NCBI GenBank assembly: GCA_024683495.1
Contig: JAIKYF010000071.1
Span: forward strand, 1-58,756
Length of the DNA stretch: 58,756 bases
Origin: Bacilli bacterium
Lineage (GTDB): Bacteria > Bacillota_I > Bacilli_A > RFN20 > CAG-826
Direction: 5' to 3'
In this document: in pieces, positions 1,276-20,162 of the stretch
How the letters are laid out: every line of letters starts with the position of its first letter
Position numbering within the stretch: position 1 is the first letter of the stretch
The notes under the pieces: generated by a model
The model's input: only the letters and a program-made list of their open reading frames with translations
The model's database searches: none
What the model was told of the DNA's origin: nothing
Translations under genes and position numbers: made by a program

Positions 1276-2084
1276 AGGAAATCCCTCAATTCTTCTTCGG
1301 TTTTTATAGAGGTGGGCACTTCAATCCCCTGCTCTAGTAAGGCGTTGATAAGCGATCTAAGGAAAGGGACGCCTAAACGAATCTTCTTTAGCTCCTCTTC
1401 ATGGGAGAAGACTTCATCTGGGGTGCCTTCTAGATAGAGAGCCCCATCATTGAGGACTAAGACTTTATCGGCCCCGGCGGCCTCTTCGACATCGTGGGTG
1501 ATGCTTAAAACGGTTAGGGTCGGATTCTCTTTCCTGATTTCCTTGATGAGGTCCAAGATCCCTTTTTTGCCTTTTGGATCAAGCATCGAAGTTGCTTCAT
1601 CCAAAATGAGGATCTTGGGGTTCATGGCTAAGATGCCGGCGATGGCGACTCTTTGCTTTTGTCCGCCAGAAAGATTCTCGGGGGCGGAGTCAAGGAACTT
1701 CTCCATTCCGACTTTGGTGCTGTATTCAAGGATGATGTCATCCATTTTCGCTGGCAAAACCTGCCTATTTTCTAATCCAAAGGCAATATCATCGCGGATG
1801 GTGGAGCCGACGAATTGATTATCGGGGTTTTGGAAGACGAGACCAATATCGGCGCGGATTTTCCTTAGGGTGCTTTTCTCTAAGAGAGTTTCAAGGATCT
1901 TGATCTCCCCTTTATAGCCGGATAATAAGCCGGCGAGAAGCTGGACTAATGTGGATTTGCCTGAGCCATTGTGGCCAATGATCGCGACATATTCCCCTTC
2001 TTCAACCGAAAAAGAGAAATCCCGAAGGACTTCTTTGCTTTCGTCATAGGAATAGGTGAGATTTTTTACTTCAATGGCCTTCAT
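1266..2084 (-). CDS. ecfA1: ECF transporter ATPase component 1
   Basis: Walker A GHNGSGKST, signature LSGGQKQRVAIAG and Walker B LILDEATSMLD. It overlaps ecfA2 by 10 nt. Confidence 0.9.
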   Translation of the reverse strand: MKAIEVKNLTYSYDESKEVLRDFSFSVEEGEYVAIIGHNGSGKSTLVQLLAGLLSGYKGEIKILETLLEKSTLRKIRADIGLVFQNPDNQFVGSTIRDDIAFGLENRQVLPAKMDDIILEYSTKVGMEKFLDSAPENLSGGQKQRVAIAGILAMNPKILILDEATSMLDPKGKKGILDLIKEIRKENPTLTVLSITHDVEEAAGADKVLVLNDGALYLEGTPDEVFSHEEELKKIRLGVPFLRSLINALLEQGIEVPTSIKTEEELRDFLCR

Positions 2085-2280
2085 TGTCTTTTTTCTTTTT
2101 CCTCTTCCAAAGGATTTCGTTGATGACTATCGTCATGATGAATAAGAAAATGACGATGCCTAGAACAAGCCACTTGACCCATTCGGGGTTAAAGCTAAAG
2201 GAGACCCCGACTAAGGTGCCGCCTACTAATAGATAGGCAAGAAAGATGACGATGAAACGATATAAGAAACCCTTTTTCAT
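2071..2280 (-). CDS. Small two-TM membrane protein of unknown function
   Basis: 69-aa ORF with two hydrophobic helices and a KRKKKK tail. It is wedged between comEB and ecfA1 with overlapping stop and start codons. Confidence 0.45.
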   Translation of the reverse strand: MKKGFLYRFIVIFLAYLLVGGTLVGVSFSFNPEWVKWLVLGIVIFLFIMTIVINEILWKRKKKKDNEGH

Positions 2281-2762
2281 TATTGGACCTTGATTAAGAT
2301 GTCTTTCCCCTCGTAGTGGCGGACTTTGACTCCGGCCATCTCGAAGATTTTTCTAGATGCTTGGTAGATTACTTGGTCCCCATGGAAGTCTTCCATATAG
2401 ACCACTTCTTTTATTCCGACCTGAACGATGGCTTTGGCGCATTCGTTGCAGGGGAATAAAGTCACATAGAGGGTGCAGCCATTGAGGCGAGAGCCATCTC
2501 TAGTGTTGAGGATCGCATTGAATTCGGCATGGCAAACATAGAGATATTTGCTGAGCAACCCCTCTCCATGTCCCCAGGGGACTTTCTCATCATCGACCCC
2601 GCGGGGCATGCCGTTATAGCCGATGGAGACGACTTTATGCTCGGTGTCGACGATGCAGGAACCGACCTGAGTCGAGGGATCTTTGGAACGGAGTGAGGAG
2701 AGTTTGGCCATCCCCATGAAGTATTCGTCCCACTTAAGATAATCTTTGCGATGCTCTTCCAT
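2280..2762 (-). CDS. comEB: dCMP deaminase (ComEB family)
   Basis: Zinc-binding cytidine/deoxycytidylate deaminase motifs HAEFNAI and PCNECAKAI. The 160-aa size is typical. Confidence 0.85.
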   Translation of the reverse strand: MEEHRKDYLKWDEYFMGMAKLSSLRSKDPSTQVGSCIVDTEHKVVSIGYNGMPRGVDDEKVPWGHGEGLLSKYLYVCHAEFNAILNTRDGSRLNGCTLYVTLFPCNECAKAIVQVGIKEVVYMEDFHGDQVIYQASRKIFEMAGVKVRHYEGKDILIKVQ

Positions 2763-2865
2763 AGATAATCCTCCAAAACTCTAATATATTACTATCTTTG
2801 CTCCTAAATTAAACTAAAAGAAAAATCATAGATTTTCTTTAAAGGCGAATTTATGAGCAAAATAG

Positions 2866-2893
2866 GCAAAAAAGAAAACCCTCGAGCGAGGGC
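2866..2893 (-). terminator. Rho-independent terminator after the wHTH regulator gene
   Basis: On the minus strand, a GCCCTCG ctc GAGGG hairpin is followed by TTTTCTTTTTT. Confidence 0.6.
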
Positions 2894-2911
2894 TTTGCTT
2901 TTGCTAGATTA

Positions 2912-3235
2912 CTAGAATCTTGAGAGCATCACTAATCTATAGCCGGTGCCATAGACGCTGTCGACGCGGGCTCCTTTGATGTAGGCCAATTTCTTACGGA
3001 TTGAAGAAATGTGGACATCAATCGTTCTTGTCGGAGAGATCGACTTATCCCCCCAGATCAGTTTGATAAGGTCAGCACGTGCAACAACATTGGGACGACG
3101 GGCATAGAGTTCTTTGAGAATTTTCCATTCTAAAGGGGTGAATTTGACATGGTACCTGTAGTAGCTCAAGGTTCTTTTCTCAACATCGCATTTGACAATA
3201 GAACCATCGAGACGTTGGATCTCAATTTCTGGCAT
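2912..3235 (-). CDS. Stand-alone OmpR/PhoB-type winged-helix DNA-binding protein with no receiver domain
   Basis: 107 aa. The pattern LTPLEWKILKELYARRPNVV...DLIKLIWGD...TRTIDVHISSIRKKL...VYGTGYRL matches the Trans_reg_C effector-domain consensus. No CheY-like N-terminus is present. Confidence 0.75.
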   Translation of the reverse strand: MPEIEIQRLDGSIVKCDVEKRTLSYYRYHVKFTPLEWKILKELYARRPNVVARADLIKLIWGDKSISPTRTIDVHISSIRKKLAYIKGARVDSVYGTGYRLVMLSRF

Positions 3236-3513
3236 GCAACCTAACCTCCATTCTTTGCTTACCTCAAGTATTTCTTGAGGGTGTGAATATTTTTATACAA
3301 ACGATAGAAATATCAAGAACTATCGCAAAACTCTCGAACATTTATACAACTTTATCTAAAATTGTCGTTTTATTTATTAAATACGGACAAATTCGGAGAG
3401 TTTCCACTTATATTCTTCCTATTTTTTAAAAAATGTCAACGGTAATCGAATAAATGTTAGTCTAAACTACTCGTTTTTCTACCATTATTCGAAATATTTT
3501 AATTTATCAGTTC

Positions 3514-8671: not shown

Positions 8672-9658
8672 TTATCTAGGGATTTTGTAATATTTTTTCT
8701 TACAATTTATAGTGATTTGTAAGGGAATTGCCTCGTTAATGGCCTTGATATATCGTTCGGAAGTTTTTCTAGAGATATAAAGAGCATTGGCATAAGAATC
8801 CAAATCGATTCCTCTAGAGGAGAAGGCGGAGGCAGAGATTAATTCCTCTAAGCCGGGGAGAGCCTCTACTTCTTCTAACCTATTTAGATAATCTCGTTTA
8901 ACTGAATTGCGGTTATAGATCTTAAGGAGGAGACCGCTATAGATAGAGGAGACTTTGGTTAAGAAATCATAGACATAAGGAGAGAGGTCGCCATGGTTAT
9001 TGGGATTGATGACAAGCTTATATTTATCGTTTAGATCCATTCCTAAGAGCTGATTCGCCAATAGGGATCCTCCTAGGGAAGTGATGTAAAAGCAGTTCGC
9101 AAAATTCTCTAAAATTTGAAATTGCGAAATGAAAGGATGTGCATGATGAAGGAAAAAGGCAAAGATGGCAGACTTAACTAGGGGGTCCAAGCCATAGATG
9201 TCTTTAACCGTCGAAGCGTATTTTAAATAAGTATCTCCAATTTCAGGATTGCCTTTTGAAGTATCATTCATCTCTTTCTTAAATAGATAAGGCCCACACA
9301 TGAGTGAATAGAATTTATTGAAGGAGGAGACATCTTCAAAAGGAAAAGAGAAACCACTTCTAAGAAGAGAGGCCCCATGCCCAATCATCTCATCATCAAA
9401 GTCATCGTCATATTGAAGGAATAATTCCTTTTCTAGCCGGGTTAGGCGGTTGAATAAACAATAGAATTCCGACTCTTTCGTCTCAATATCCGACAATAAA
9501 TATTTGATGGGGAGAGACTCATAATAGAAGAAATCTCCAAAAGTCTTGGTAGCATCGTTATTTTTAAGTCCTTCTAGATAACGAGCAAAAGACGCCTTCG
9601 AAAGAGACTTCTTCTTATCCGCTACTGAAAAATACTTGTAAATTGACGCGTATTTCAT
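8672..9658 (-). CDS. Hypothetical protein. It may be a degenerate Fic-fold protein with a C-terminal HTH.
   Basis: 328-aa ORF in an AT-rich setting. FFLHHAHPFISQFQILENF sits where a Fic core motif HPFx(D/E)GNGR would be, but it lacks GNGR. The C-terminal ISRKTSERYIKAINE is HTH-like. Confidence 0.55.
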   Translation of the reverse strand: MKYASIYKYFSVADKKKSLSKASFARYLEGLKNNDATKTFGDFFYYESLPIKYLLSDIETKESEFYCLFNRLTRLEKELFLQYDDDFDDEMIGHGASLLRSGFSFPFEDVSSFNKFYSLMCGPYLFKKEMNDTSKGNPEIGDTYLKYASTVKDIYGLDPLVKSAIFAFFLHHAHPFISQFQILENFANCFYITSLGGSLLANQLLGMDLNDKYKLVINPNNHGDLSPYVYDFLTKVSSIYSGLLLKIYNRNSVKRDYLNRLEEVEALPGLEELISASAFSSRGIDLDSYANALYISRKTSERYIKAINEAIPLQITINCKKKYYKIPR

Positions 9659-9830
9659 ATCTATAGTTTAACATTGATTTATTTATTTTTAAATAAACTA
9701 GGACAAATATTAAATATTTAGAAAAAAGCAAGTAATTATCGATAGATTAAAAATATTATAAAATCATTTAAGCATGTCACTACCTAAAGTCCTCAAAAAA
9801 TGGTAAATTATTGTTACGAGGTAAATAACA

Positions 9831-10187
9831 ATGAAAGAATTCGAATTCTACCATGACGTTAATGGAAACGTCGTCGCCTTACTTGCTGAAGGCAAAGCCC
9901 CTCTTGGCATGACCAAGATCGAACCAAAGGCTGCTGATGTCGGACAAGAAAAGCACATCCCAGTCGTCAAACACGAAGGCGGCGTCTTGAAGACCATCTG
10001 TGGTGAAGTCCCCCACCCCATGACCCCAGAACACCACATCTCCTGGTTTGCCGTCGCTAGCGAAGACAAGATCAGCTTCGTCTATATCCCAACCGATGGA
10101 CCAGCCGAAGCCTGCTTCCCAGAAGTCGAGCACGGAGTTGCCTATAGCTATTGCAACCTCCATGGTCTCTGGAAGAAAGAATTCTAG
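9831..10187 (+). CDS. Superoxide reductase (1Fe neelaredoxin/desulfoferrodoxin ferrous-iron domain)
   Basis: Iron-ligand motifs EKHIPVV, HPMTPEHHISW and YCNLHGLW are in the canonical order. The protein is 118 aa. Confidence 0.85.
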   Translation: MKEFEFYHDVNGNVVALLAEGKAPLGMTKIEPKAADVGQEKHIPVVKHEGGVLKTICGEVPHPMTPEHHISWFAVASEDKISFVYIPTDGPAEACFPEVEHGVAYSYCNLHGLWKKEF

Positions 10188-10209
10188 TTTTATAAAAAGA
10201 AGAAAAATT

Positions 10210-10238
10210 GTCTCTGTTTTACGACGGGGACTTTTTTT
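10210..10238 (+). terminator. Possible weak terminator after the superoxide reductase gene
   Basis: A GTCTC ... GGGAC stem (one G-U pair) is followed by TTTTTTT. Confidence 0.35.
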
Positions 10239-10266
10239 AACTTTGTTATCTTCCTAAAATAAAAGT

Positions 10267-11523
10267 ATGAAAGCATTGGTACTTTGCGGCGGAGGATCAT
10301 TAGGCATTTATGAGATAGGTGCTTGGAAATACCTCGAAGAAAGAGGAGAGCATTTCGATATCATCACCGGCTCCTCCATCGGTGCCCTCAATGGAGCCTT
10401 GCTTCTTTCGTCTAACTTAGAAGAAGCCATTGATTTATGGAACAAGATCACGGCCGAGGAAGTCATGGTCGATGGCTTCAATATGTATAAAGGGATGTTC
10501 GCCGACATCAAGAATGGCTCTTTGAAGAAAGCCCCGCAATTCATGAAGATCTATCTTAAGAATAGAGGGGCCGACATCACTCCATTCAAAAACCTCCTTA
10601 AGAAGTACATCAAACCCAAAATCATCGTCAAAAACCCCATAAAATTAGGAATCGTCACCACTTTATACAAGGGGCAAAAAGAAGTTAGAGTCCTTCTTAA
10701 TGAAGAGCCAGAAAAGAGAATCATCGATTGGCTTCTTGCCTCCAGCGCCTGCTTCCCGATTTTCCCCATGTATAAAATCGGCAAGGAAACCTATGTCGAT
10801 GGAGGATATAGCAATAACCTCCCCATCGACTACGCGATCGAGCTGGGAGCCGATGAAATCGTCGCCATCCCTCTGCCCGCCTTCCCGAAAGTCCCACAGC
10901 ATTCTGAAAGAATGAAACTTCCTTTCGTTAAGGCGATTAGGCCATCTCATCCAATGGGATTTTTGATGAACTTTGATAGAAAGACCCTCGATCAGAACTA
11001 TTTGATGGGTTATTTAGATGCAAGAAGAGCCTATGGTGAGACCTATGGGAATATCTTCTATTTCAAGAAAGACCCTAAACTAGATTCTTTAGCAGAGAAG
11101 TTCGTCTATGCAATCGCAAAAACTGATATAAATAACTATCAAAGAATCTCCGATTTCCTCGTTTTCAATGGCAAAAAGCCTATATCTTCCATGGATATGT
11201 TCATTCGAACCCTCGAGGAATTAGGCTCTTGGATTGATATCGATTTCTTAAAAGAATATGAACTCCAAGACTTCTTGACCGCCTGCCACGAGAAGATTCT
11301 GAAACTAAAGAAAGATAAATATTATCAGACTTTTGCTAAACGTCTGCCTCCCGCGAGAATCGTTTATCCTAAAGACCGGTTGGCCGCTTTAGATTATTGC
11401 TACAACCATTATAAGGATGAAAAAATCTCCAAAAGGCATCTTCAAATCAGAAGAGCCTCTCCGGAATCGGAAGCCGTCTACTTCCTCTTCCGGGTCCTGA
11501 GCCAAGAAGGCTACACGGTATAA
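10267..11523 (+). CDS. Patatin-like phospholipase
   Basis: Oxyanion GGGSLG, nucleophile elbow GSSIG (GxSxG) and catalytic DGG (VDGGYSNNLP). Confidence 0.85.
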   Translation: MKALVLCGGGSLGIYEIGAWKYLEERGEHFDIITGSSIGALNGALLLSSNLEEAIDLWNKITAEEVMVDGFNMYKGMFADIKNGSLKKAPQFMKIYLKNRGADITPFKNLLKKYIKPKIIVKNPIKLGIVTTLYKGQKEVRVLLNEEPEKRIIDWLLASSACFPIFPMYKIGKETYVDGGYSNNLPIDYAIELGADEIVAIPLPAFPKVPQHSERMKLPFVKAIRPSHPMGFLMNFDRKTLDQNYLMGYLDARRAYGETYGNIFYFKKDPKLDSLAEKFVYAIAKTDINNYQRISDFLVFNGKKPISSMDMFIRTLEELGSWIDIDFLKEYELQDFLTACHEKILKLKKDKYYQTFAKRLPPARIVYPKDRLAALDYCYNHYKDEKISKRHLQIRRASPESEAVYFLFRVLSQEGYTV

Positions 11524-12283: not shown

Positions 12284-12412
12284 GATTAATTTCCTTTCAA
12301 TGTTGTCCCCTCTATTATAAATCAAGGAATGAAATTAAAAAGCCAAACAAGAAAGAATTTTTCTTGTCTTATCCTTGATAAAAGTTCTAGGCGAGGCGAA
12401 AATACAAGGGCT

Positions 12413-12826
12413 ATGAAAAAACTTTATATTGATTCCACCGCTAGAGACCTCTTAGTCGCTAGGCAATTAAAAGAGGTCCTCACCAAGATTGATATCGATG
12501 CCGAAGTCAATTCTTTGGAAGACCAATTCTCGGGAGTGATCCTTCTTTTATTCACTAAAGACACGGTTAAAGAAGAGATGTTCAGGGAATTCAGTTGGCT
12601 GACTAGCGAATTCGATTTCTCTAAGGTTAAGAATCTTCGGGTCTTATGTTTCCTTGCTTATCATTCAAAAGAAAGAAAGGCCGAAGACCTCTTTGAGGAA
12701 GTCGTTTCCCCTGTCTATGAGGATTATTTCTCGGAAGAATTCAAACCTTACGCCTTTGATTTCGATAACGAGGAGCCGTCCTTGGAAGAATTGCAAGAGA
12801 TCCTCTTTGAAGGCTACTCCCTCTAG
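12413..12826 (+). CDS. Small cytoplasmic protein of unknown function with an alternating beta/alpha (flavodoxin/TIR-like) pattern
   Basis: 137 aa from MKKLYIDST. The segments GVILLLFTKDTVKEEMFREFSWLTSEF and RVLCFLAYH resemble TIR beta-C/alpha-C and beta-D regions. The start is uncertain: the ORF-track ATG at 12329 lies only 46 nt from the gpmA start. Confidence 0.5.
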   Translation: MKKLYIDSTARDLLVARQLKEVLTKIDIDAEVNSLEDQFSGVILLLFTKDTVKEEMFREFSWLTSEFDFSKVKNLRVLCFLAYHSKERKAEDLFEEVVSPVYEDYFSEEFKPYAFDFDNEEPSLEELQEILFEGYSL

Positions 12827-12847: not shown

Positions 12848-12877
12848 GCGTGCAAATCCCGCACGCTTTTTATTTTT
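12848..12877 (+). terminator. Rho-independent terminator after the small 12413-12826 gene
   Basis: GCGTGC aaatccc GCACGC followed by TTTTTATTTTT. It contains the recurring GTGCAAATCCCGC motif. Confidence 0.7.
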
Positions 12878-12952: not shown

Positions 12953-13897
12953 TTGTTATTATTACATATACGAGGAAAAATCATACTCACAAGCATTCCA
13001 AAAGATAGGCTAAAAGCCGTACTCTATCTAAAAGATTTGTTAGTTGAGAAGAGAATCTATGACCTTCCAGGACCCATAGATTTATCTTTCGAGGGAACAA
13101 GCCCTTTCGTGATGAATCTATTAGAAGAGCTCCCAGCCTCTATCTATGTTGGTAAAACTCTCTCCATCTATCTTGAAGATGAAAGCGAGGTCCTCTGGGA
13201 TAAGGCCAAGTCGATGGAATATCTAGAAACGTTGGGTCTGGTCCGCTTCGAAAAACTCTCGAAGATGGGAATGGCTGAACCGAAAGGGACTGTGATCAAG
13301 GTTAATGACGAACTGGGAAAAAGCCTTGAATATAGTGATGAAGAGTATGAGAACTTCTACCGGGAAATCCTCCATTTCTCCAACATCTTCAACGCCTTCG
13401 ACAATCTCGATGTCGTTGAGGGATATAAGCCTCTAAAAGATCTGGTGGCAGAGAAAAATGATCCAGGTTGCTTCACTTGGAAATATTATCTCCCCTATCT
13501 CTCCATCTATGCGAAAGCCAAATATATCGGCTTGGAACTCGATGGCTCGACCTTAAGCAAGATAGTAATAAACCCGACAATCCGTTCCTTCGTTGGGCTC
13601 GATACTAATCCCATTAGACATGAGGATTTCTATCTCGCCTTAAAGGGCTTATATAAAATGAAGGGGGATTTGCTTACAAAAACGGCCTCGCTTGAACATG
13701 ATATGTGGATCATCCGATCCATCTCCAAGCTCGGCTATCTAGAGAGCAAGAAGCATCTATATGTCCCGTTTGAGGAATTACCGCTAAGCGAAGATCCATC
13801 ATTGGCGGTAACCTACAATAACGACATCATCAAATACGATTATTTTGGGGTCTTGTGCCTCAACTTATATGCCACCAAAGGGGGTCAAAATGAATAA
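12953..13897 (+). CDS. Hypothetical protein, first gene of the candidate system operon
   Basis: 314-aa ORF with a TTG start in the track. The first in-frame ATG is about 45 codons in. I recognised no motif. Its stop overlaps the next gene's start by 8 nt. Confidence 0.55.
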   Translation: MLLLHIRGKIILTSIPKDRLKAVLYLKDLLVEKRIYDLPGPIDLSFEGTSPFVMNLLEELPASIYVGKTLSIYLEDESEVLWDKAKSMEYLETLGLVRFEKLSKMGMAEPKGTVIKVNDELGKSLEYSDEEYENFYREILHFSNIFNAFDNLDVVEGYKPLKDLVAEKNDPGCFTWKYYLPYLSIYAKAKYIGLELDGSTLSKIVINPTIRSFVGLDTNPIRHEDFYLALKGLYKMKGDLLTKTASLEHDMWIIRSISKLGYLESKKHLYVPFEELPLSEDPSLAVTYNNDIIKYDYFGVLCLNLYATKGGQNE

Positions 13898-14795
13898 AAA
13901 ATTAGAAGAATTCGAAATCTATAAAACCGCATCTTCTCTCGTCGATGACGGTTTGAAGAAATTACTCGAAAAATGGCAGATCATTTCCGAGAGACGGGCA
14001 ACTAGCGAAGGCGTTCCTCTTTTGCCAAACATCTTCTTGGAGTGCTCCAATGCCTTTGAGATTCAAGAATTTGTGACCAATTTGGGAGTCTTCCTCTCTG
14101 AGCAGAGAATCATGGACTTCGATGGGAAAGCTTTATCCTATTACTACGTCCTCGATTATTCGCGTTCCTCTAAAGAGAATTCCAAAGACATCGAAACTAT
14201 GGAAAGCCTCACTTTCCCGGGCTTCACCCATTTCTACACCGTCATCAAAGAGCAACTGACGAGATTCGGTAAGCCATATAGAGGCGTCTTAGCCATCGAT
14301 ATCACCGATTGGATCGAGGGAAGGCATTATGACGAAATAAAATTCCACGATTTCTTGGCTTTCATGCACGATAACGATGAATGCACGTTGGCGGTTTTCA
14401 TCTCCAAGTGCCGCGATGCCTCGAAGAACAGCGACGCCTTCAAGGAAATCGCCGCGACTTCGAGATTGATTCGCATCAAAGCCGATCATGCCGATGTCTC
14501 CTTGTTCCTCAATCAATTCAAGGAGCTCATCCACGAAAAGGGACTTGAGCTCGATAAAGAGAGCGAGAAAGTCATCACCGAGACAATCGTGGCCGTCAGC
14601 GAGAACAAATACGTGGACATCCACCACTTCCTCAGTGAATTATCGGTCGATTTAGCCTATAACAAATTCATCGATTCCGCCGATGACAAAGTCATCCATG
14701 GCGATGAGGTCGACTACTATAAGAAAGATGGGGAATTCGTCTCCGCTTACTTATCTAGCGGCAATTACGGCTACGGATTTAAGGGGGCCAGATAA
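13890..14795 (+). CDS. Degenerate AAA+ (SpoVK/CbbX/EccA-like) protein lacking canonical Walker motifs
   Basis: Start at MNKKLEEF with a GGGGG RBS. The layout resembles SpoVK-type AAA+ proteins: LPNIFLECSNAFE sits where GxxGxGKT is expected, GVLAIDITDW where GVLFIDEA is expected, and TLAVFIS and SRLIRIKADHADVSLF where sensor regions are expected. Confidence 0.4.
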   Translation: MNKKLEEFEIYKTASSLVDDGLKKLLEKWQIISERRATSEGVPLLPNIFLECSNAFEIQEFVTNLGVFLSEQRIMDFDGKALSYYYVLDYSRSSKENSKDIETMESLTFPGFTHFYTVIKEQLTRFGKPYRGVLAIDITDWIEGRHYDEIKFHDFLAFMHDNDECTLAVFISKCRDASKNSDAFKEIAATSRLIRIKADHADVSLFLNQFKELIHEKGLELDKESEKVITETIVAVSENKYVDIHHFLSELSVDLAYNKFIDSADDKVIHGDEVDYYKKDGEFVSAYLSSGNYGYGFKGAR

Positions 14796-14797
14796 CT

Positions 14798-16516
14798 ATG
14801 AACTCAAGCAGATACAAAAGATATATCGGCGAGCACGCCTTCGACAATGACTATCTCAGCGAAGCCGAAATCAAAAGCGTCCTCAGCGAATTCAATACAC
14901 TCAATCCTAAGCCCGGTGTCTTAGCGGGTTTGCCACTCTTATCCGATGGGAAGACGATGTATTTGGATAATGCCGACTACCATACCTTGATTTTGGGCGC
15001 CACCGGTTCCATGAAGACCCGTCTATTCGTCATGCCTGGCGTCCATGCCTTAGGGCAGGCGGGAGAGAACATGGTCATCACCGATCCTAAGGGTGAGATT
15101 TATGAGAGGACTTCCGGCTTCTTGAAATCCCAAGGATACGACATCAAAGTCCTCAATTTCCGTGACACCGACCACACTGATTACTGGAATCCTCTATATG
15201 AGGCGGCCAAATATTATCGGGAAGGCAATAGCCAAGATAAGGATTTTGCCATCGGAATGGTCTCTGATTTAGTCCAGATATTAGCCGCCCCGTTCAAGGG
15301 CCCCAAGGGCGATCCCTATTGGATGGAAATGGCCACCAATTACACGATGGCCTGCATCCTTATGGAATTCGTCTTATGCAAAGACATCAACAAGATCTCT
15401 CTTCGCAGCGTCGATAGTTTCATCAACGCCGCGGCGGAAGATGAAAGCTATGATGATGACGATGAGATAGATATCAAACGTCTATTCTCCATCATCCCCC
15501 CGACTCACGTCATCTCCTCCAAGGGACGCGCGACCGTCAATACGGCCAGAGTCACAAAGCAAGGCATCGTCGTCACCGCCAAGAGCTTGACCAACATGTT
15601 CACCAACTCAATCGGCATCTCAAGAATGACGACTCTTAACACGATCAATATCCACGACTTCTCATCCAAAGATAAAAAGACCGCTTTATTCGTCATCGTT
15701 CCCGATGAGAAGACCTCCACCCACTCTTTGGCGGCCTTATTCGTCAAGCAAGTCTACGAAACCTTGGTCAGAGACGCTCAGAAATTAGAAGGCTTCCGCC
15801 TCCCAAGAAGACTCAACTTCATCTTGGACGAATTCGCGAATATGCCAGAGATCGCCGATATGGGCTCTATGATTTCCGCGGCTCGTTCCCGTAACATCCG
15901 TTTCAATATTGTCATTCAGAATAACTCCCAATTGGTCTCCAACTATGGCTTAGAGAAAGCCGAGACCATCAAGAGCAACTGCTTGAACTGGGTTTATCTT
16001 TCCACCAAAGAGAACGCTCTTCTCGAGCAACTCCAGAAGATGGGTGGCAATAAAGTCACAAGCCGGGGCGAAAAGCCAGTCCTCAATATGGAAGACCTCA
16101 ATGGCTTAAAGAAAGGTTGGGGATACGCCGAAGCCTTACTATTATTAGCAAGAGCCAAACCTCACGTCACCAAAATCACCGACATCGATTCCTATCCCGC
16201 TTATAAGAAGTTAGATGCGGTGCCATTCCCCAAACTCAAAAAGAAATTCGACTTCTACACCTATAGCGACATCTTGAAAGAACACTCCATGAGAGAGCTT
16301 AAGTATCTCTTCGAAAGAGACGTGGCCCTCACCTTGGCAGACCCCGATGATGAAAGCGAGAAGGCAGGGAATAAAACAGAAGAAGTGACCGGGGCCCCAA
16401 ATGATAGACCCGGCGCGAACATCGACGTCAATAAAGATACCGCCTCATCTCCGCTTAAGCCACCATTCGGAGATAATAAGGACGACGATGACGACGACGG
16501 TGGCTTCGATTGGTAA
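14798..16516 (+). CDS. VirD4/TraG/TraD-family (type IV coupling protein-like) ATPase. It is soluble, with no TM anchor and an acidic C-terminal tail.
   Basis: HTLILGATGSMKTRLFVMP...VITDPKGEIYERT (P-loop region), Walker B RLNFILDEFANMPEI and RSRNIRFNIVIQNNSQLVSNYG (TraG-D_C-like). There is no hydrophobic N-terminus. The protein ends in NKDDDDDDGGFDW. Confidence 0.8.
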   Translation: MNSSRYKRYIGEHAFDNDYLSEAEIKSVLSEFNTLNPKPGVLAGLPLLSDGKTMYLDNADYHTLILGATGSMKTRLFVMPGVHALGQAGENMVITDPKGEIYERTSGFLKSQGYDIKVLNFRDTDHTDYWNPLYEAAKYYREGNSQDKDFAIGMVSDLVQILAAPFKGPKGDPYWMEMATNYTMACILMEFVLCKDINKISLRSVDSFINAAAEDESYDDDDEIDIKRLFSIIPPTHVISSKGRATVNTARVTKQGIVVTAKSLTNMFTNSIGISRMTTLNTINIHDFSSKDKKTALFVIVPDEKTSTHSLAALFVKQVYETLVRDAQKLEGFRLPRRLNFILDEFANMPEIADMGSMISAARSRNIRFNIVIQNNSQLVSNYGLEKAETIKSNCLNWVYLSTKENALLEQLQKMGGNKVTSRGEKPVLNMEDLNGLKKGWGYAEALLLLARAKPHVTKITDIDSYPAYKKLDAVPFPKLKKKFDFYTYSDILKEHSMRELKYLFERDVALTLADPDDESEKAGNKTEEVTGAPNDRPGANIDVNKDTASSPLKPPFGDNKDDDDDDGGFDW

Positions 16517-16535
16517 TCAAATAAGGAGAATAACC

Positions 16536-17138
16536 ATGGCTGAAGAAAAAGAAGAAAAGAAAGAACTCAAGATTGACGAAAAGTCCCTTGAACTCTTCCA
16601 AAAAGACAGAAACATCCTCATTCTCGGGGAAATCAACGAGAAAATGGCAATCAATATCCTTCTCAGGCTCCTCTATCTCGATTATGAGAACCCCGATAAG
16701 GAAATCACCATCTACATCCACTCCCCTGGCGGATCGGTTTCGGCCGGCTTAATCATCGTCGATGCGATGCAAAACGTGAGAGCCCCGATTAGAACCGTCG
16801 ATATCGGCATGGCCGCCTCAATGGCCTCGGTCATCTTGGCCTCCGGCTCCAAAGGCAGAAGACAGATCTTCGAGCACGCCAAAGTTTTGATCCATCAGCC
16901 GATGATCGTCATGGGCGGGGAGACTGCCACCAACACGACCCAGGCGAGAAAACTCTATGAGGATATGGCCCATGAGCAAGAAATCCTCGAATCCATCTAT
17001 GCCCTCCACTCCTGTGGAAAATACACTCGCGAAGATTATATGAAGCTCACCGACAAAGGCGACTACACGATGGAAGCCGATGAGGCCATGAAGATGGCCC
17101 TTGTCGATAGCATCATCAAACCTAGAGACATCAAATAA
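16536..17138 (+). CDS. Divergent ClpP-family (S14) serine protease
   Basis: Start at MAEEKEEKK, 7 nt after AAGGAG. Conserved YIHSPGGSVSAG, GMAASMAS (Ser95), LIHQP (His120) and TDKGDYTMEADEA (Asp173/176). The N-terminus is E/K-rich rather than the usual ClpP axial-loop sequence. Confidence 0.85.
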   Translation: MAEEKEEKKELKIDEKSLELFQKDRNILILGEINEKMAINILLRLLYLDYENPDKEITIYIHSPGGSVSAGLIIVDAMQNVRAPIRTVDIGMAASMASVILASGSKGRRQIFEHAKVLIHQPMIVMGGETATNTTQARKLYEDMAHEQEILESIYALHSCGKYTREDYMKLTDKGDYTMEADEAMKMALVDSIIKPRDIK

Positions 17139-17178
17139 CCATTCGTTAAACTGACTATTGTGAAAAGGAGGTTTTCAT

Positions 17179-20124
17179 ATGCCCTCTGACGGAAACTTTC
17201 TTGCCTCCACTCCCGAACTAATACGATTCTATCTATGTTTAATCATCGGACTGATCGTTTATTTCGGCGTGCTCGTCGGGGTTATCTACCAAAGAATCAA
17301 AAGGAAAACCTCCCTTTCTCCCTTTATCATCATTTCTTTGTTCTTTATCGGACATCTAATCATTTTGATCCCGGTTTATACCTTCCTTTATGACCATCAG
17401 CAACTGATGGGCAATTCTTTAATCCAGAATGGAATCCAGACCGGGACCATCCCTTATAATAACGTTCCTTCGTATTGGCCAGCCTTCAAGATTATCTCCG
17501 GCGCCTTCACGTCCTTCGTCTTCCAGATCGATTTCGATGCGATGGAATATCTTTCCGAATGCGGGGATTGGATCATCCGTAACTACTTCATCTTCATCGC
17601 CATCACGGCCGTCGCCGACACTATCGCCACTTCCTACGCCTTGATTAGACTCTTCTTAAGAGCCTTGAAGGCAAATGGAAAAACCATGTTTAGGTGGTTG
17701 GTGAGAGAAGACATTTATTACATCTTCACCGATTTGGAATTCGACGAGATCAAAAGCTTCATCATCGAACTTGAATCCGGAAAGTCCCGTCCAGGAAGAA
17801 AACCCCCTTCAGTCCGCGTCATCTTGTCTAGATCATCTCAATATACCGACCCCGGACGTGAGCTCCATGACCAATTAGTCAACGCAAGAATCGCCGTCTT
17901 CGCCGAAGACCTTTCAAAGCCTCTTCTTATAAAATTCATGCGCAAACACCGCATATTTTATAAAAAGAACGAGAAAGTGAACTTCTATTCTCTCTACTAT
18001 AAAGATGAGAAAAACTACGAGTTCGCCAGAATCGCCTGCGAGATTTTCGAAGATTGCGCGAAGAAGAAAGATACTGAGCATTACAACAAAAGATTCAACA
18101 CCTACATCAAATACAACCACTTCTACATCTCTTATCAAAACGCCGAATTATTCTTAGAGAACAATAATGACTTCGCCAAAAAGTCCCGCGGGGCCATCAG
18201 CTTGTTTAACGAATATACTTCCAACGCCGAAGATTTCGTTTTCAATATGCCTTTGACCGAATTCATCCTCAAAAGAAAGGGTGAAGATAAAGATGTCAAA
18301 GTCAAATTCACCGCCTTCTCCACATGCAATCCTCGTTTGAAGGATGGCTTAGGGTTTGGATTCTTAGGAGGGGATGTCACTAATCAAAACATCTATTCGC
18401 TTATTCCTTCCGTCGATATCAACTTCTTCGGATTCGGGCGAATCAACCAGACCTTGCTCACCAAGATGAGCTATACATATCAGATTCCCGGTTGCAACAA
18501 AGAGACTATGGGGAATATCGATCCAAACGATCCTAATTCCTATAAACTCAACTTCTTCGTTTATTCCAATGATGACAATTCCGAATTCGTCGATGCCCAT
18601 TTTAGAGGGGTATCCAAGGAAAACGATGCGGAATTGACGAGGAATTTTGGATATTTCACCGATATATTCAATTTCGAAAACGAAATTAGGCTGCAGAATT
18701 CCTTAGAGAGAATCGTCGATCGGGCCTCCTACCATAACATCAATAAAGATGGGGAAGACATCGATGTCGAAAAACAACCCTCTAGAGAAGTCATCATCAT
18801 CGCGACGGGCGATCCTCATAACAATTTCGCCCTCGCCGTCAAGACTCAGCACATCATCCGCCAAATCATCGCGAAAAGAAAAGCCTTGGGCGAAAGATTC
18901 AAATCCATCCCCATCTTCGTCCATATCAACCGCGAGAAGATCTATAACTCCAGCTTCATCGGCGATGATATCTTCGAGATGAGGCAGATTAGCCCAGTCA
19001 TCAATAGGGATAATAACTTCCCAGGCGAAAACGGAACCTCAAGCGAAAGAGAGATTTATCTATCTACCGCCGTTCCAATCGTTATCTTCGGCCGCGATAA
19101 GCGTTTCCGTTCCGATGATAGCGCCTCTTCGCTTAAGCCATTCGCCGTCAGGAGCAAATATGTCTATGACTATGATTATGATTTGGTGTTGAGCAAAGAT
19201 GGCTATAGCTTCAGTTTGAAGAGAAACTCCAAGCCAACGATCGATGCCAAGGCCGAGAACAAATTCGACATCGATGATGTCCGTAACTGCGAATCCAACT
19301 ATGCGACCGCGGCTCATTTGCCAACGAAGTTAGGCTTAATGGGTCTATGCCCCGCTTTCGTCGCCGAGAAGGAAAACGCCGCTCAAAGACATGAAGCCAT
19401 CAAAGATAAGCTCGGTGCCCTCAATAACGTCTTCGATCTCAATGAAGTGGATTCAGGAGCTTTGACCGCCTCGATGAAGGAACTACAAAAATTGGTCGCT
19501 GAATATCTTGAGCACCGGAAATCCATCAAGGCTGATTCGAAGACCACAAATATCACTTTAGCCCAAAAACAAAAATATAAGAAAATCGTCAAATATTTAC
19601 AAAATAATACGGTTTTGCTCGAGAAATATTATGAAGTCTTCACTCTCGGCTTCGTGAACAGAATAAAGCCGGGACTAAGAATCCTCGCCGAGACCGAACA
19701 CAATCGCTGGCTTTATTATTGCTTGTCTAGAGGAGATGTCCCGATGAGCAGAGAGCACTTCTTCTCCAAGAACATCGAATATTATTCCACCAAAGGCACT
19801 AGAAGGGGCAATTTCTCCAAAGATGCCGGAGGAACCGTTCACTTCAACCTCATCGATTTCTCGAATAGAAAGCAAGCCATCCTCGACCAGGCTGTAGTGA
19901 GTCTATTAACCATCGCTGACGATAGTCCGAAAACCATTTATGAAGATATGAAGAAAATCTTCGAATCCTACTACTTCAACGATGCTAAACTCTATATCTT
20001 CTCGGATTTCTTCTTAGAAGGGACCGAATACGATTTAGTCGAAGAGGATAACTTCTTCGAAGTCTGCGAAGAGGATGTCGATTATAGCGGTTCGACAATC
20101 TCCACCGCCACGAAAAATCAATAA
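17179..20124 (+). CDS. Large polytopic membrane protein with cytoplasmic TrkA-N/Rossmann-like and C-terminal RyR-like regions
   Basis: 981 aa with an AAGGAGG RBS. About four N-terminal TM helices lie in the first ~170 aa. INFFGFGRINQTLL (aa ~414) and VIIIATGDPHNNFALAVKT (aa ~538) resemble KTN/TrkA-N segments. LAETEHNRWLYYCLSRGD...VHFNLIDFSNRKQAILD (aa ~835-900) resembles a RyR domain. Confidence 0.6.
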   Translation: MPSDGNFLASTPELIRFYLCLIIGLIVYFGVLVGVIYQRIKRKTSLSPFIIISLFFIGHLIILIPVYTFLYDHQQLMGNSLIQNGIQTGTIPYNNVPSYWPAFKIISGAFTSFVFQIDFDAMEYLSECGDWIIRNYFIFIAITAVADTIATSYALIRLFLRALKANGKTMFRWLVREDIYYIFTDLEFDEIKSFIIELESGKSRPGRKPPSVRVILSRSSQYTDPGRELHDQLVNARIAVFAEDLSKPLLIKFMRKHRIFYKKNEKVNFYSLYYKDEKNYEFARIACEIFEDCAKKKDTEHYNKRFNTYIKYNHFYISYQNAELFLENNNDFAKKSRGAISLFNEYTSNAEDFVFNMPLTEFILKRKGEDKDVKVKFTAFSTCNPRLKDGLGFGFLGGDVTNQNIYSLIPSVDINFFGFGRINQTLLTKMSYTYQIPGCNKETMGNIDPNDPNSYKLNFFVYSNDDNSEFVDAHFRGVSKENDAELTRNFGYFTDIFNFENEIRLQNSLERIVDRASYHNINKDGEDIDVEKQPSREVIIIATGDPHNNFALAVKTQHIIRQIIAKRKALGERFKSIPIFVHINREKIYNSSFIGDDIFEMRQISPVINRDNNFPGENGTSSEREIYLSTAVPIVIFGRDKRFRSDDSASSLKPFAVRSKYVYDYDYDLVLSKDGYSFSLKRNSKPTIDAKAENKFDIDDVRNCESNYATAAHLPTKLGLMGLCPAFVAEKENAAQRHEAIKDKLGALNNVFDLNEVDSGALTASMKELQKLVAEYLEHRKSIKADSKTTNITLAQKQKYKKIVKYLQNNTVLLEKYYEVFTLGFVNRIKPGLRILAETEHNRWLYYCLSRGDVPMSREHFFSKNIEYYSTKGTRRGNFSKDAGGTVHFNLIDFSNRKQAILDQAVVSLLTIADDSPKTIYEDMKKIFESYYFNDAKLYIFSDFFLEGTEYDLVEEDNFFEVCEEDVDYSGSTISTATKNQ

Positions 20125-20126
20125 TG

Positions 20127-20162
20127 AAAAACGAGTTCAGATGACGTTCTGAACTCGTTTTA
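20127..20162. terminator. Bidirectional terminator closing the candidate operon
   Basis: ACGAGTTCAGA / TCTGAACTCGT stem flanked by A and T runs, between convergent genes. It overlaps the stop codon of the phosphatase gene. Confidence 0.75.

Follow-up and report, generated by a model that had tools for sequence, protein, structure and literature searches.

Type IV coupling proteins (T4CPs), such as TrwB of R388, Cagbeta/VirD4 of H. pylori, TraD and TraG, count as hallmark proteins of conjugative transfer and of type IV secretion. The 572-amino-acid (aa) protein encoded at nt 14798–16516 (+ strand) of contig JAIKYF010000071.1 from a Bacilli bacterium (assembly GCA_024683495.1; the whole stretch of 58,756 nt is referred to below as the window) resembled these proteins in its nucleotide-binding domain, all-alpha insert, Walker B, RSRN and Gln motifs, and disordered tail. 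However, it had neither transmembrane (TM) helices nor a relaxase or type IV secretion system (T4SS) partner, it belonged to a family with Met or Lys in front of the P-loop lysine, and in the place of such partners it had a ClpP gene and an AAA+-like protein as obligate neighbour. The favoured reading of this arrangement, held at a probability of about one half, is that of a non-conjugative, T4CP-derived ATPase module that is coupled to ClpP via the AAA+-like partner and is probably defensive.

Further described systems were close enough for comparison. A tripeptide, (L/I/V)-G-(F/L), attaches Clp ATPases to hydrophobic pockets on ClpP; in the ClpX proteins of S. aureus and B. subtilis it has the form IGF (PMC8745299). 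The window shared with ClpXP, ClpAP and ClpCP a ClpP whose catalytic triad was intact, an adjacent gene for a ring-type ATPase, and an AAA+-fold protein carrying such a tripeptide. It differed from them in that the tripeptide lay at the extreme C-terminus and not in an internal loop, its carrier was without the Walker A lysine, the sole intact motor in the window was a T4CP (FtsK/HerA-related class) and not an AAA+ unfoldase, and residues of the hydrophobic pocket (H-pocket) and the N-terminus of ClpP were changed. The SIR2-HerA and DUF4297-HerA systems likewise possess an FtsK/HerA-related ring ATPase recruited from its original role and combined with variable effectors, and they were the next-best structural neighbours; here, in contrast, the ATPase was of the T4CP family with its all-alpha domain, the partners were others, and a role in defence is suggested by gene context. 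In the literature, the only T4SS-DNA_transf domain met in a defence context was a rare N-terminal fusion of Menshen NsnA, and no description of a soluble T4CP-like/AAA+-like/ClpP system was found in the literature searched.

The soluble T4CP-like protein

The 572-aa protein matched the Pfam families T4SS-DNA_transf (6e-40), TraG-D_C (6e-20) and TrwB_AAD_bind (8e-15), and scored 269.4 bits, against a curated cut-off of 250, with NCBIfam NF045973 ("VirD4-like conjugal transfer protein, CD1115 family"), a model of 442 positions that covers the soluble core only. The AlphaFold2 model, based on a 32-homologue alignment, had a predicted local distance difference test (pLDDT) value of 85 and a predicted template modelling (pTM) score of 0.83, and its best Foldseek matches in the PDB were Cagbeta (8dol, 1e-16) and TrwB (1e-13, template modelling score about 0.7), with ~480 aligned columns; the HerA defence complexes 8wld, 8xaw and 8wiv ranked after the T4CPs. 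The RecA-like nucleotide-binding domain was homologous to that of TrwB, with both the Walker A Lys and the Walker B Asp-Glu (FILDEF, nt 15818–15835), and it contained an all-alpha domain at aa ~134–290 (nt 15197–15667), as indicated by the AlphaFold2 helices at 134–289, the TrwB_AAD_bind match, and the alignment with TrwB and Cagbeta. The stretch RSRNIRFNIVIQNNSQL was located at aa 363–379, and Lys73, Asp344/Glu345, the RSRN arginines and Gln374 were invariant across the 32 homologues aligned.

No hydrophobic segment of TM level was predicted in the protein, and none was predicted at the N-terminus of the 31 aligned homologues; the P-loop started at residue ~67, compared with ~150 in the TM-anchored relatives. 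Thus, Pfam, NCBIfam, Foldseek and TM prediction agreed with the original prediction, made from the sequence without database searches, of a T4CP homologue that starts directly in soluble sequence, and the P-loop, Walker B, TraG-D_C-like region and tail described there were all borne out. The product of nt 14798–16516 is a true T4CP homologue without a membrane anchor.

The Walker A motif, GATGSMKT (nt 14996–15019), had Met in place of Gly ahead of the catalytic lysine. This substitution, which had been regarded as a peculiarity of the single protein, is real but family-wide: of the 203 relatives surveyed, 147 had Lys directly in front of the catalytic lysine, 51 had Met there and 5 had Gly, and G-x-T-G-[ST]-[KM]-K-[ST] was the norm across the whole soluble family. 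Because the deviation extends over the family and the residues listed above, from Lys73 to Gln374, are invariant, the P-loop site looks selected, not decayed. A soluble subclade represented by four loci of Lachnospiraceae possessed a canonical P-loop, GSTGSGKS, and an AAA+-like partner ending in AGF or PGF; the T4CP-like proteins of these loci had helical C-terminal extensions of 250–350 aa, and in three of the four an HI0933-like flavoprotein gene adjoined the T4CP-like gene.

The C-terminal tail (aa 522–572, nt 16361–16513) was predicted to be disordered (pLDDT <50), contained PPF at nt 16460–16468 and DDDDDDGGFDW at nt 16481–16513, and terminated as ...PPFGDNKDDDDDDGGFDW, the last residues being GGFDW. 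Acidic disordered tails ending in an aromatic residue are found in TraD, where the tail docks to TraM, and at the C-terminal tip of SSB; in F-plasmid TraD such a tail is a known relaxosome-docking element. The window tail was alike, but no TraM-like or relaxosome gene was present in the window, and the closest relatives, which had 47–51% identity and the same cassette, possessed basic tails, e.g. ...SPFHKKKI. Tail sequence and length varied among the T4CP-like relatives, acidic/aromatic ends (FDW, GWD, DWD, DFF, DFL) being sporadic in the family and absent from the closest relatives, and the short motif xPF, recurring family-wide, was the more widespread tail element. As judged from these alignments, the poly-Asp/aromatic tail is lineage-specific. 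Since it is not kept in the closest relatives with the same cassette, it cannot be a conserved docking element, and the earlier view of the poly-Asp/GGFDW end as a docking peptide was given up. At the spot aligned with GGF of the window (nt ~16499–16507), the tails of the relatives P0002–P0006 had AIGF, ALGF, PIGN or SGGF; the T4CP-like tail in the subclade of the window may carry a second tripeptide of the ClpP type.

The 58.7-kb window was ordinary chromosome of housekeeping content, encoding ECF-transporter ATPases, a Mur-ligase-type enzyme, gpmA, GatA/GatB, LigA, PcrA, a class II aminoacyl-tRNA synthetase and TsaD/TsaB, and it also held polysaccharide genes, glycosyltransferases, a tyrosine phosphatase and a flippase-like membrane protein. 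No relaxase, T4SS gene (VirB4), integrase or tRNA gene was found in the window or among its open reading frames (ORFs) scanned. Two properties of T4CPs, the N-terminal TM anchor and the genetic association with relaxase and T4SS genes, were thus missing, and the relaxase and T4SS on the same element that would have marked an ordinary coupling protein were not found in these 58.7 kb. A scan of GTDB species representatives gave at least 503 relatives, of which the best 79 loci were kept; together with three loci of the closest homologue, 82 loci were analysed. Relaxase and VirB4 were not among the 25 commonest operonic Pfam families on either side of the gene in the 79 genome loci. The soluble T4CP-like clade was from Firmicutes (Bacilli and Clostridia), mostly from gut and rumen metagenome-assembled genomes (MAGs).

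The conjugative members of NF045973 examined, from plasmids pBMB68 (B. thuringiensis) and p576 (B. pumilus), shared ~26–31% identity with the window protein. These plasmid proteins were 648–761 aa long, with two N-terminal TM helices and the P-loops GTTGSGKT or STQSGKT, and the T4CP gene of pBMB68 was situated between a MobP3 relaxase gene and the genes for VirB6, PrgI and VirB4. The window protein was like them in exceeding the family cut-off and in its core (~31% identity), but differed in size, TM helices, P-loop and neighbours, and among 72,556 plasmids no relative closer than ~31% identity was observed. The protein is not a conjugative coupling protein, and the name "conjugal transfer" is probably wrong for the soluble clade of NF045973.

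The AAA+-like partner and the ClpP paralogue

Directly upstream of the T4CP-like gene, nt 13890–14795 (+) encoded a degenerate AAA+-like protein of the CbbX/SpoVK type, 301 aa in length, which the original prediction had overlooked. Its family profile found a match in 76 of the 82 loci, which almost without exception immediately preceded the T4CP-like gene, so that the partner was the most constant companion of that gene; all genes around the pair varied between loci. The partner was soluble according to TM prediction, and the possibility that the upstream gene supplies a split TM anchor was rejected on this ground. An AAA+ fold was indicated by both structure and profiles: the best Foldseek matches of its AlphaFold2 model (pLDDT 68) were CbbX (3syl/3zuh, 5e-6), then RFC and RuvB, and the family profile, which matched CbbX weakly (0.036), matched true AAA+ neighbours (660–740 aa, Pfam AAA plus AAA_lid_6) at 1e-19 to 1e-23. 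The Walker A lysine, and with it a functional ATPase site, was missing from the family consensus (SGxG...). The partner was not universal in the soluble family, as it was missing near distant relatives in termite-gut metagenomes. In these termite-gut contigs (L111–L137), soluble T4CP-like proteins with Lys at the variable P-loop site (K-type), and with the P-loop at residue ~60, were flanked by unrelated ORFs of 260–300 aa. The soluble T4CP-like family is broader than the partner-linked clade.

Near its C-terminus (...NYGYGFKGAR*), the partner possessed the tripeptide YGF (nt 14772–14780), which is of the type used for docking to ClpP and here had a C-terminal position, not one in a loop. In a motif census, [ILMVY]-G-[FL] occurred within the last 12 residues in 62 of 70 AAA+-like partners, compared with 3.2% (34 of 1047) of the remaining ORFs of these loci, and several of these 34 were related AAA+ neighbours or members of a divergent downstream partner family. 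The observation was replicated in independent metagenome loci, where 18 of 21 AAA+-like partners had the tripeptide. The forms included IGF (37), IGL (9), LGF (6), MGL (4), YGL (3) and others, usually preceded by basic residues and often followed by Gly; IGFG, the form found in ClpX, was frequent. The only loci with a partner but without a C-terminal xG[FL] were L008 (Izemoplasmatales), L011 (Mollicutes) and L017; lineages resembling Mollicutes, from which L008 and L011 came, often have no ClpP. A conserved candidate docking peptide of the ClpP type is, by its sequence, thus located at the C-terminus of the AAA+-like neighbour. The link to ClpP suspected earlier gained real support, from the partner tripeptide and the gene linkage; the proposed docking site, the acidic tail, was replaced by the peptide of the neighbour.

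The gene following the T4CP-like gene (nt 16536–17138, +) encoded a divergent ClpP paralogue of 200 aa. It started, as had been noted earlier, 19 nt downstream, and the gap contained AAGGAG. The protein matched Pfam CLP_protease at 1.5e-44, scored below every NCBIfam ClpP cut-off, and matched PDB ClpP at 2e-36 with the Ser, His and Asp triad aligned and intact, consistent with a ClpP fold. Asn was present at the equivalent of H-pocket Phe82, and the canonical N-terminal axial-loop sequence was missing, as it was in the other ClpPs of the clade to which the window belongs. In the cassette ClpPs, Ser97 and His122 were kept, Asp171 was kept as Asp or Asn, and the pocket Phe82 was lost. These alterations at the H-pocket and N-terminus would fit a dedicated partner.

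Divergent ClpP paralogues were encoded in 18 of the 79 genome loci, mostly directly after the T4CP-like gene. In a neighbour-joining tree, the window was placed in a clade with L001, L004–7, L009, L015/25/26 and L045/70, all having the Met P-loop and all but one a ClpP; further members were L085, L086 and L088, with ClpP, and L087, without it. The tripeptide ended in Leu in 16 of the 18 ClpP-linked loci and in Phe in 48 of 51 unlinked ones (Fisher p = 7e-11, with no correction for phylogeny). Of the three unlinked loci that departed from this rule, two were contigs ending at the T4CP gene, and the relation of xGL and xGF to ClpP was seen in at least two clades.

Other operon members and neighbouring genes

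The operon spanned nt 12953–20124, with junctions that overlapped or measured 2–40 nt, and the T4CP-like/AAA+-like pair is, by this spacing, predicted to be co-transcribed with ClpP and a 981-aa membrane protein. The first gene (nt 12953–13897, +; 8-nt overlap with the next) encoded a 314-aa protein whose fold had no known match: Pfam, PADLOC and NCBIfam gave nothing, the PDB sequence search gave chance-level matches only, and among the related loci a homologue was present only in the closest cassette, L001–3 (7e-8). A terminator-like hairpin (nt 12848–12866), GC-rich and with a T-run, separated the operon from nt 12329–12826 (+), a small acidic orphan ORF of 165 aa that had no Pfam match and only chance-level PDB matches and was apparently a separate transcription unit. 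Scans of six cassette proteins against Pfam, NCBIfam and PADLOC returned nothing for the 165-, 314-, 316- and 981-aa proteins.

The 981-aa protein (nt 17179–20124, +), encoded 40 nt after the ClpP gene, was predicted to have at least three N-terminal TM helices. It contained a Rossmann-like FFGFGRINQ (GFGxxN) at aa 416–424 and an invariant EHNRW at aa 840–844, and had 24 representative relatives among 1.84 billion proteins; there was no Pfam relative, and the PDB sequence search stayed at chance level. Relatives occurred in L001–3, L070, L009 and L085, with shorter forms of ~600 aa in loci of Clostridia. A RyR-like C-terminal module is suspected because true RyR-domain proteins are among the neighbours. 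The neighbours of 1192–1270 aa in L004–6 were rejected as relatives, since they lacked both N-terminal TM helices and the EHxRW motif and were not matched by the profile. In one of these Bacilli contigs, L006, two paralogous soluble T4CP-like genes (nt 1769–3340 and 8885–10333) were ~6 kb apart, with the gene for a 1270-aa soluble protein between them. A hairpin with a 14-bp stem (nt 20128–20161) lay between the end of the operon and the convergent tyrosine-phosphatase gene. On the other side, one gene (gpmA) away from the cassette, nt 10267–11523 (+) encoded a 418-aa patatin-like phospholipase, weakly similar to models of anti-phage lipases and of the cyclic-oligonucleotide-based anti-phage signalling system (CBASS) but below their cut-offs; it could be an independent defence effector.

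The flanks in the window were housekeeping genes. In other genomes, CARF plus PD-(D/E)xK nucleases of the Card1/Can2 type were operonic partners in seven loci (up to 6e-47), and TPR, HTH and AAA+ proteins were operonic partners as well; neighbours included a MADS system, an E1-E2 protein, a TIR plus NB-ARC protein, a kinase-VWA-PP2C triad, and a DUF4011/AAA_11/AAA_12/MTES_1575 helicase. In nine loci, the pair was followed by an ORF of ~100 aa and the CARF and PD-(D/E)xK nuclease, often together with a true AAA+ protein that has xGF at its end and with an EHxRW membrane protein of ~600 aa; no cyclic-nucleotide synthase was identified in these nine loci.

Proposed function and alternatives

To judge from its patchy occurrence, from partner genes that change between loci and from the genes nearby, the module acts in conflict with phages or with mobile DNA entering the cell, and this pattern of context suggests that the T4CP-like module is a conflict system with swappable effectors. 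In the favoured mechanism, the T4CP-like hexamer would be an ATP-driven motor and substrate receptor, and the AAA+-like partner would form an adaptor ring, the C-terminal [ILMY]-G-[FL] tails of which enter the hydrophobic pockets of ClpP. These tails would dock on the dedicated ClpP paralogue in the window and on the housekeeping ClpP elsewhere, and a bound protein or protein-DNA substrate would be handed to the protease or, alternatively, the protease would be switched on. Canonical T4CPs rely on their own TM helices for membrane attachment or sensing; here the 981-aa membrane protein may contribute this function in trans. We infer from the tripeptide and the linkage that docking to ClpP takes place, and there is a substantial chance that the module is a new type of ClpP-coupled machine.

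A more far-reaching version is tentative and, in our estimate, somewhat doubtful. According to this version, the locus would encode a new class of ATP-dependent protease and immune machine in which a non-AAA+ T4CP-derived hexamer sits on a pseudo-AAA+ adaptor ring docked on ClpP by IGF-type tails. The recipient cell would put to new use the ancestral recognition of relaxase-DNA or other translocated substrates, with proteins of incoming conjugative elements or phages captured at the membrane via the 981-aa protein and fed to ClpP, and the housekeeping ClpP would be hijacked where there is no dedicated one.

Several points weigh against coupling to ClpP and against defence. Most loci had no own ClpP, so that the model must assume the housekeeping ClpP there, and the canonical partners of ClpP are active AAA+ unfoldases, whereas the AAA+-like partner had no Walker A lysine. 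The AAA+-like model was of moderate quality, being derived from a 3-sequence alignment, and distant K-type relatives of the termite gut had no detectable AAA+-like partner. Being short, the tripeptide might bind to the T4CP-like ring or to some other partner. Its covariation with ClpP rested on few independent events and was imperfect in the clade of the window, where the window had YGF with ClpP, L085 had IGF with ClpP, and L087 had YGL without ClpP. Furthermore, no system model of PADLOC 2.0 matched the cassette, the sole match being a weak one of the T4CP-like protein to mad8 (7e-9).

Among the other explanations, the one that survived best, which we regard as unlikely, is a sensor-motor in which the T4CP-like ring and the AAA+-like protein are together loaded onto foreign DNA, like HerA in SIR2-HerA and DUF4297-HerA, and allosterically activate the effector of the locus, be it ClpP, a nuclease with a CARF domain or a membrane protein. 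No threading into ClpP would take place, and the xG[FL] tail would bind the ring or the effectors generically. Effector-like partners that differ by locus (ClpP, CARF-PD(D/E)xK, TPR, AAA+ and membrane proteins), the ranking of the HerA defence complexes next to the T4CPs, and the presence of the tripeptide with or without a ClpP gene in the locus are all consistent with such a device; however, the tripeptide specifically fits the ClpP-docking consensus, its Leu or Phe form tracks the dedicated ClpP, and the 19-nt spacing couples the translation of the cassette ClpP closely to that of the T4CP-like gene.

A cellular, non-defensive role, improbable in our view, would be that of a specialised ATP-dependent protease or of a membrane-associated quality-control or export module, with the defence-like neighbours being coincidental. 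It would suit the position of the operon among housekeeping and cell-envelope genes (gpmA, tyrosine phosphatase, flippase-like protein, glycosyltransferases), as well as the window without an integrase or other mobile-element boundary gene among the ORFs scanned, without tRNA genes and without a PADLOC system match. Against it stand the patchy distribution, the varying genomic positions, the strongly variable gene content between species, the bona fide immune genes that recur beside or within the operons, and the extreme rarity of the membrane component. An ordinary coupling protein, either the orphan or remnant of an ICE (integrative and conjugative element) or the coupling protein of a mobilisable element dependent on a helper T4SS, with another protein supplying the membrane attachment, would account for the NCBIfam name, the true conjugative members of the family and the TraD-like tail, but is largely refuted by a relaxase, T4SS, integrase and tRNA target missing from the 58.7 kb and absent from the commonest operonic neighbours in 79 other loci, by the distance from plasmid T4CPs with a different anchor, P-loop and partner gene, and, as to a decaying remnant, by catalytic residues conserved across hundreds of species.

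A T4CP-derived module coupled to ClpP would have consequences beyond this locus. A large soluble clade without T4SS, comprising at least 503 relatives, would show that T4CPs have been recruited to another job, and the current names "conjugal transfer protein" can cause false calls of plasmids, ICEs and mobilisable elements in MAGs of Firmicutes. Should the conserved IGF-type peptide indeed dock on ClpP, a dead AAA+ adaptor and a non-AAA+ motor would for the first time be seen to make up a partner of this protease, with a bearing on the regulation of ClpP and on the biology of drugs of the acyldepsipeptide (ADEP) type. The module is also a candidate for the core of a defence system that has not been catalogued and whose effectors, namely ClpP, CARF nucleases and membrane proteins, can be exchanged.

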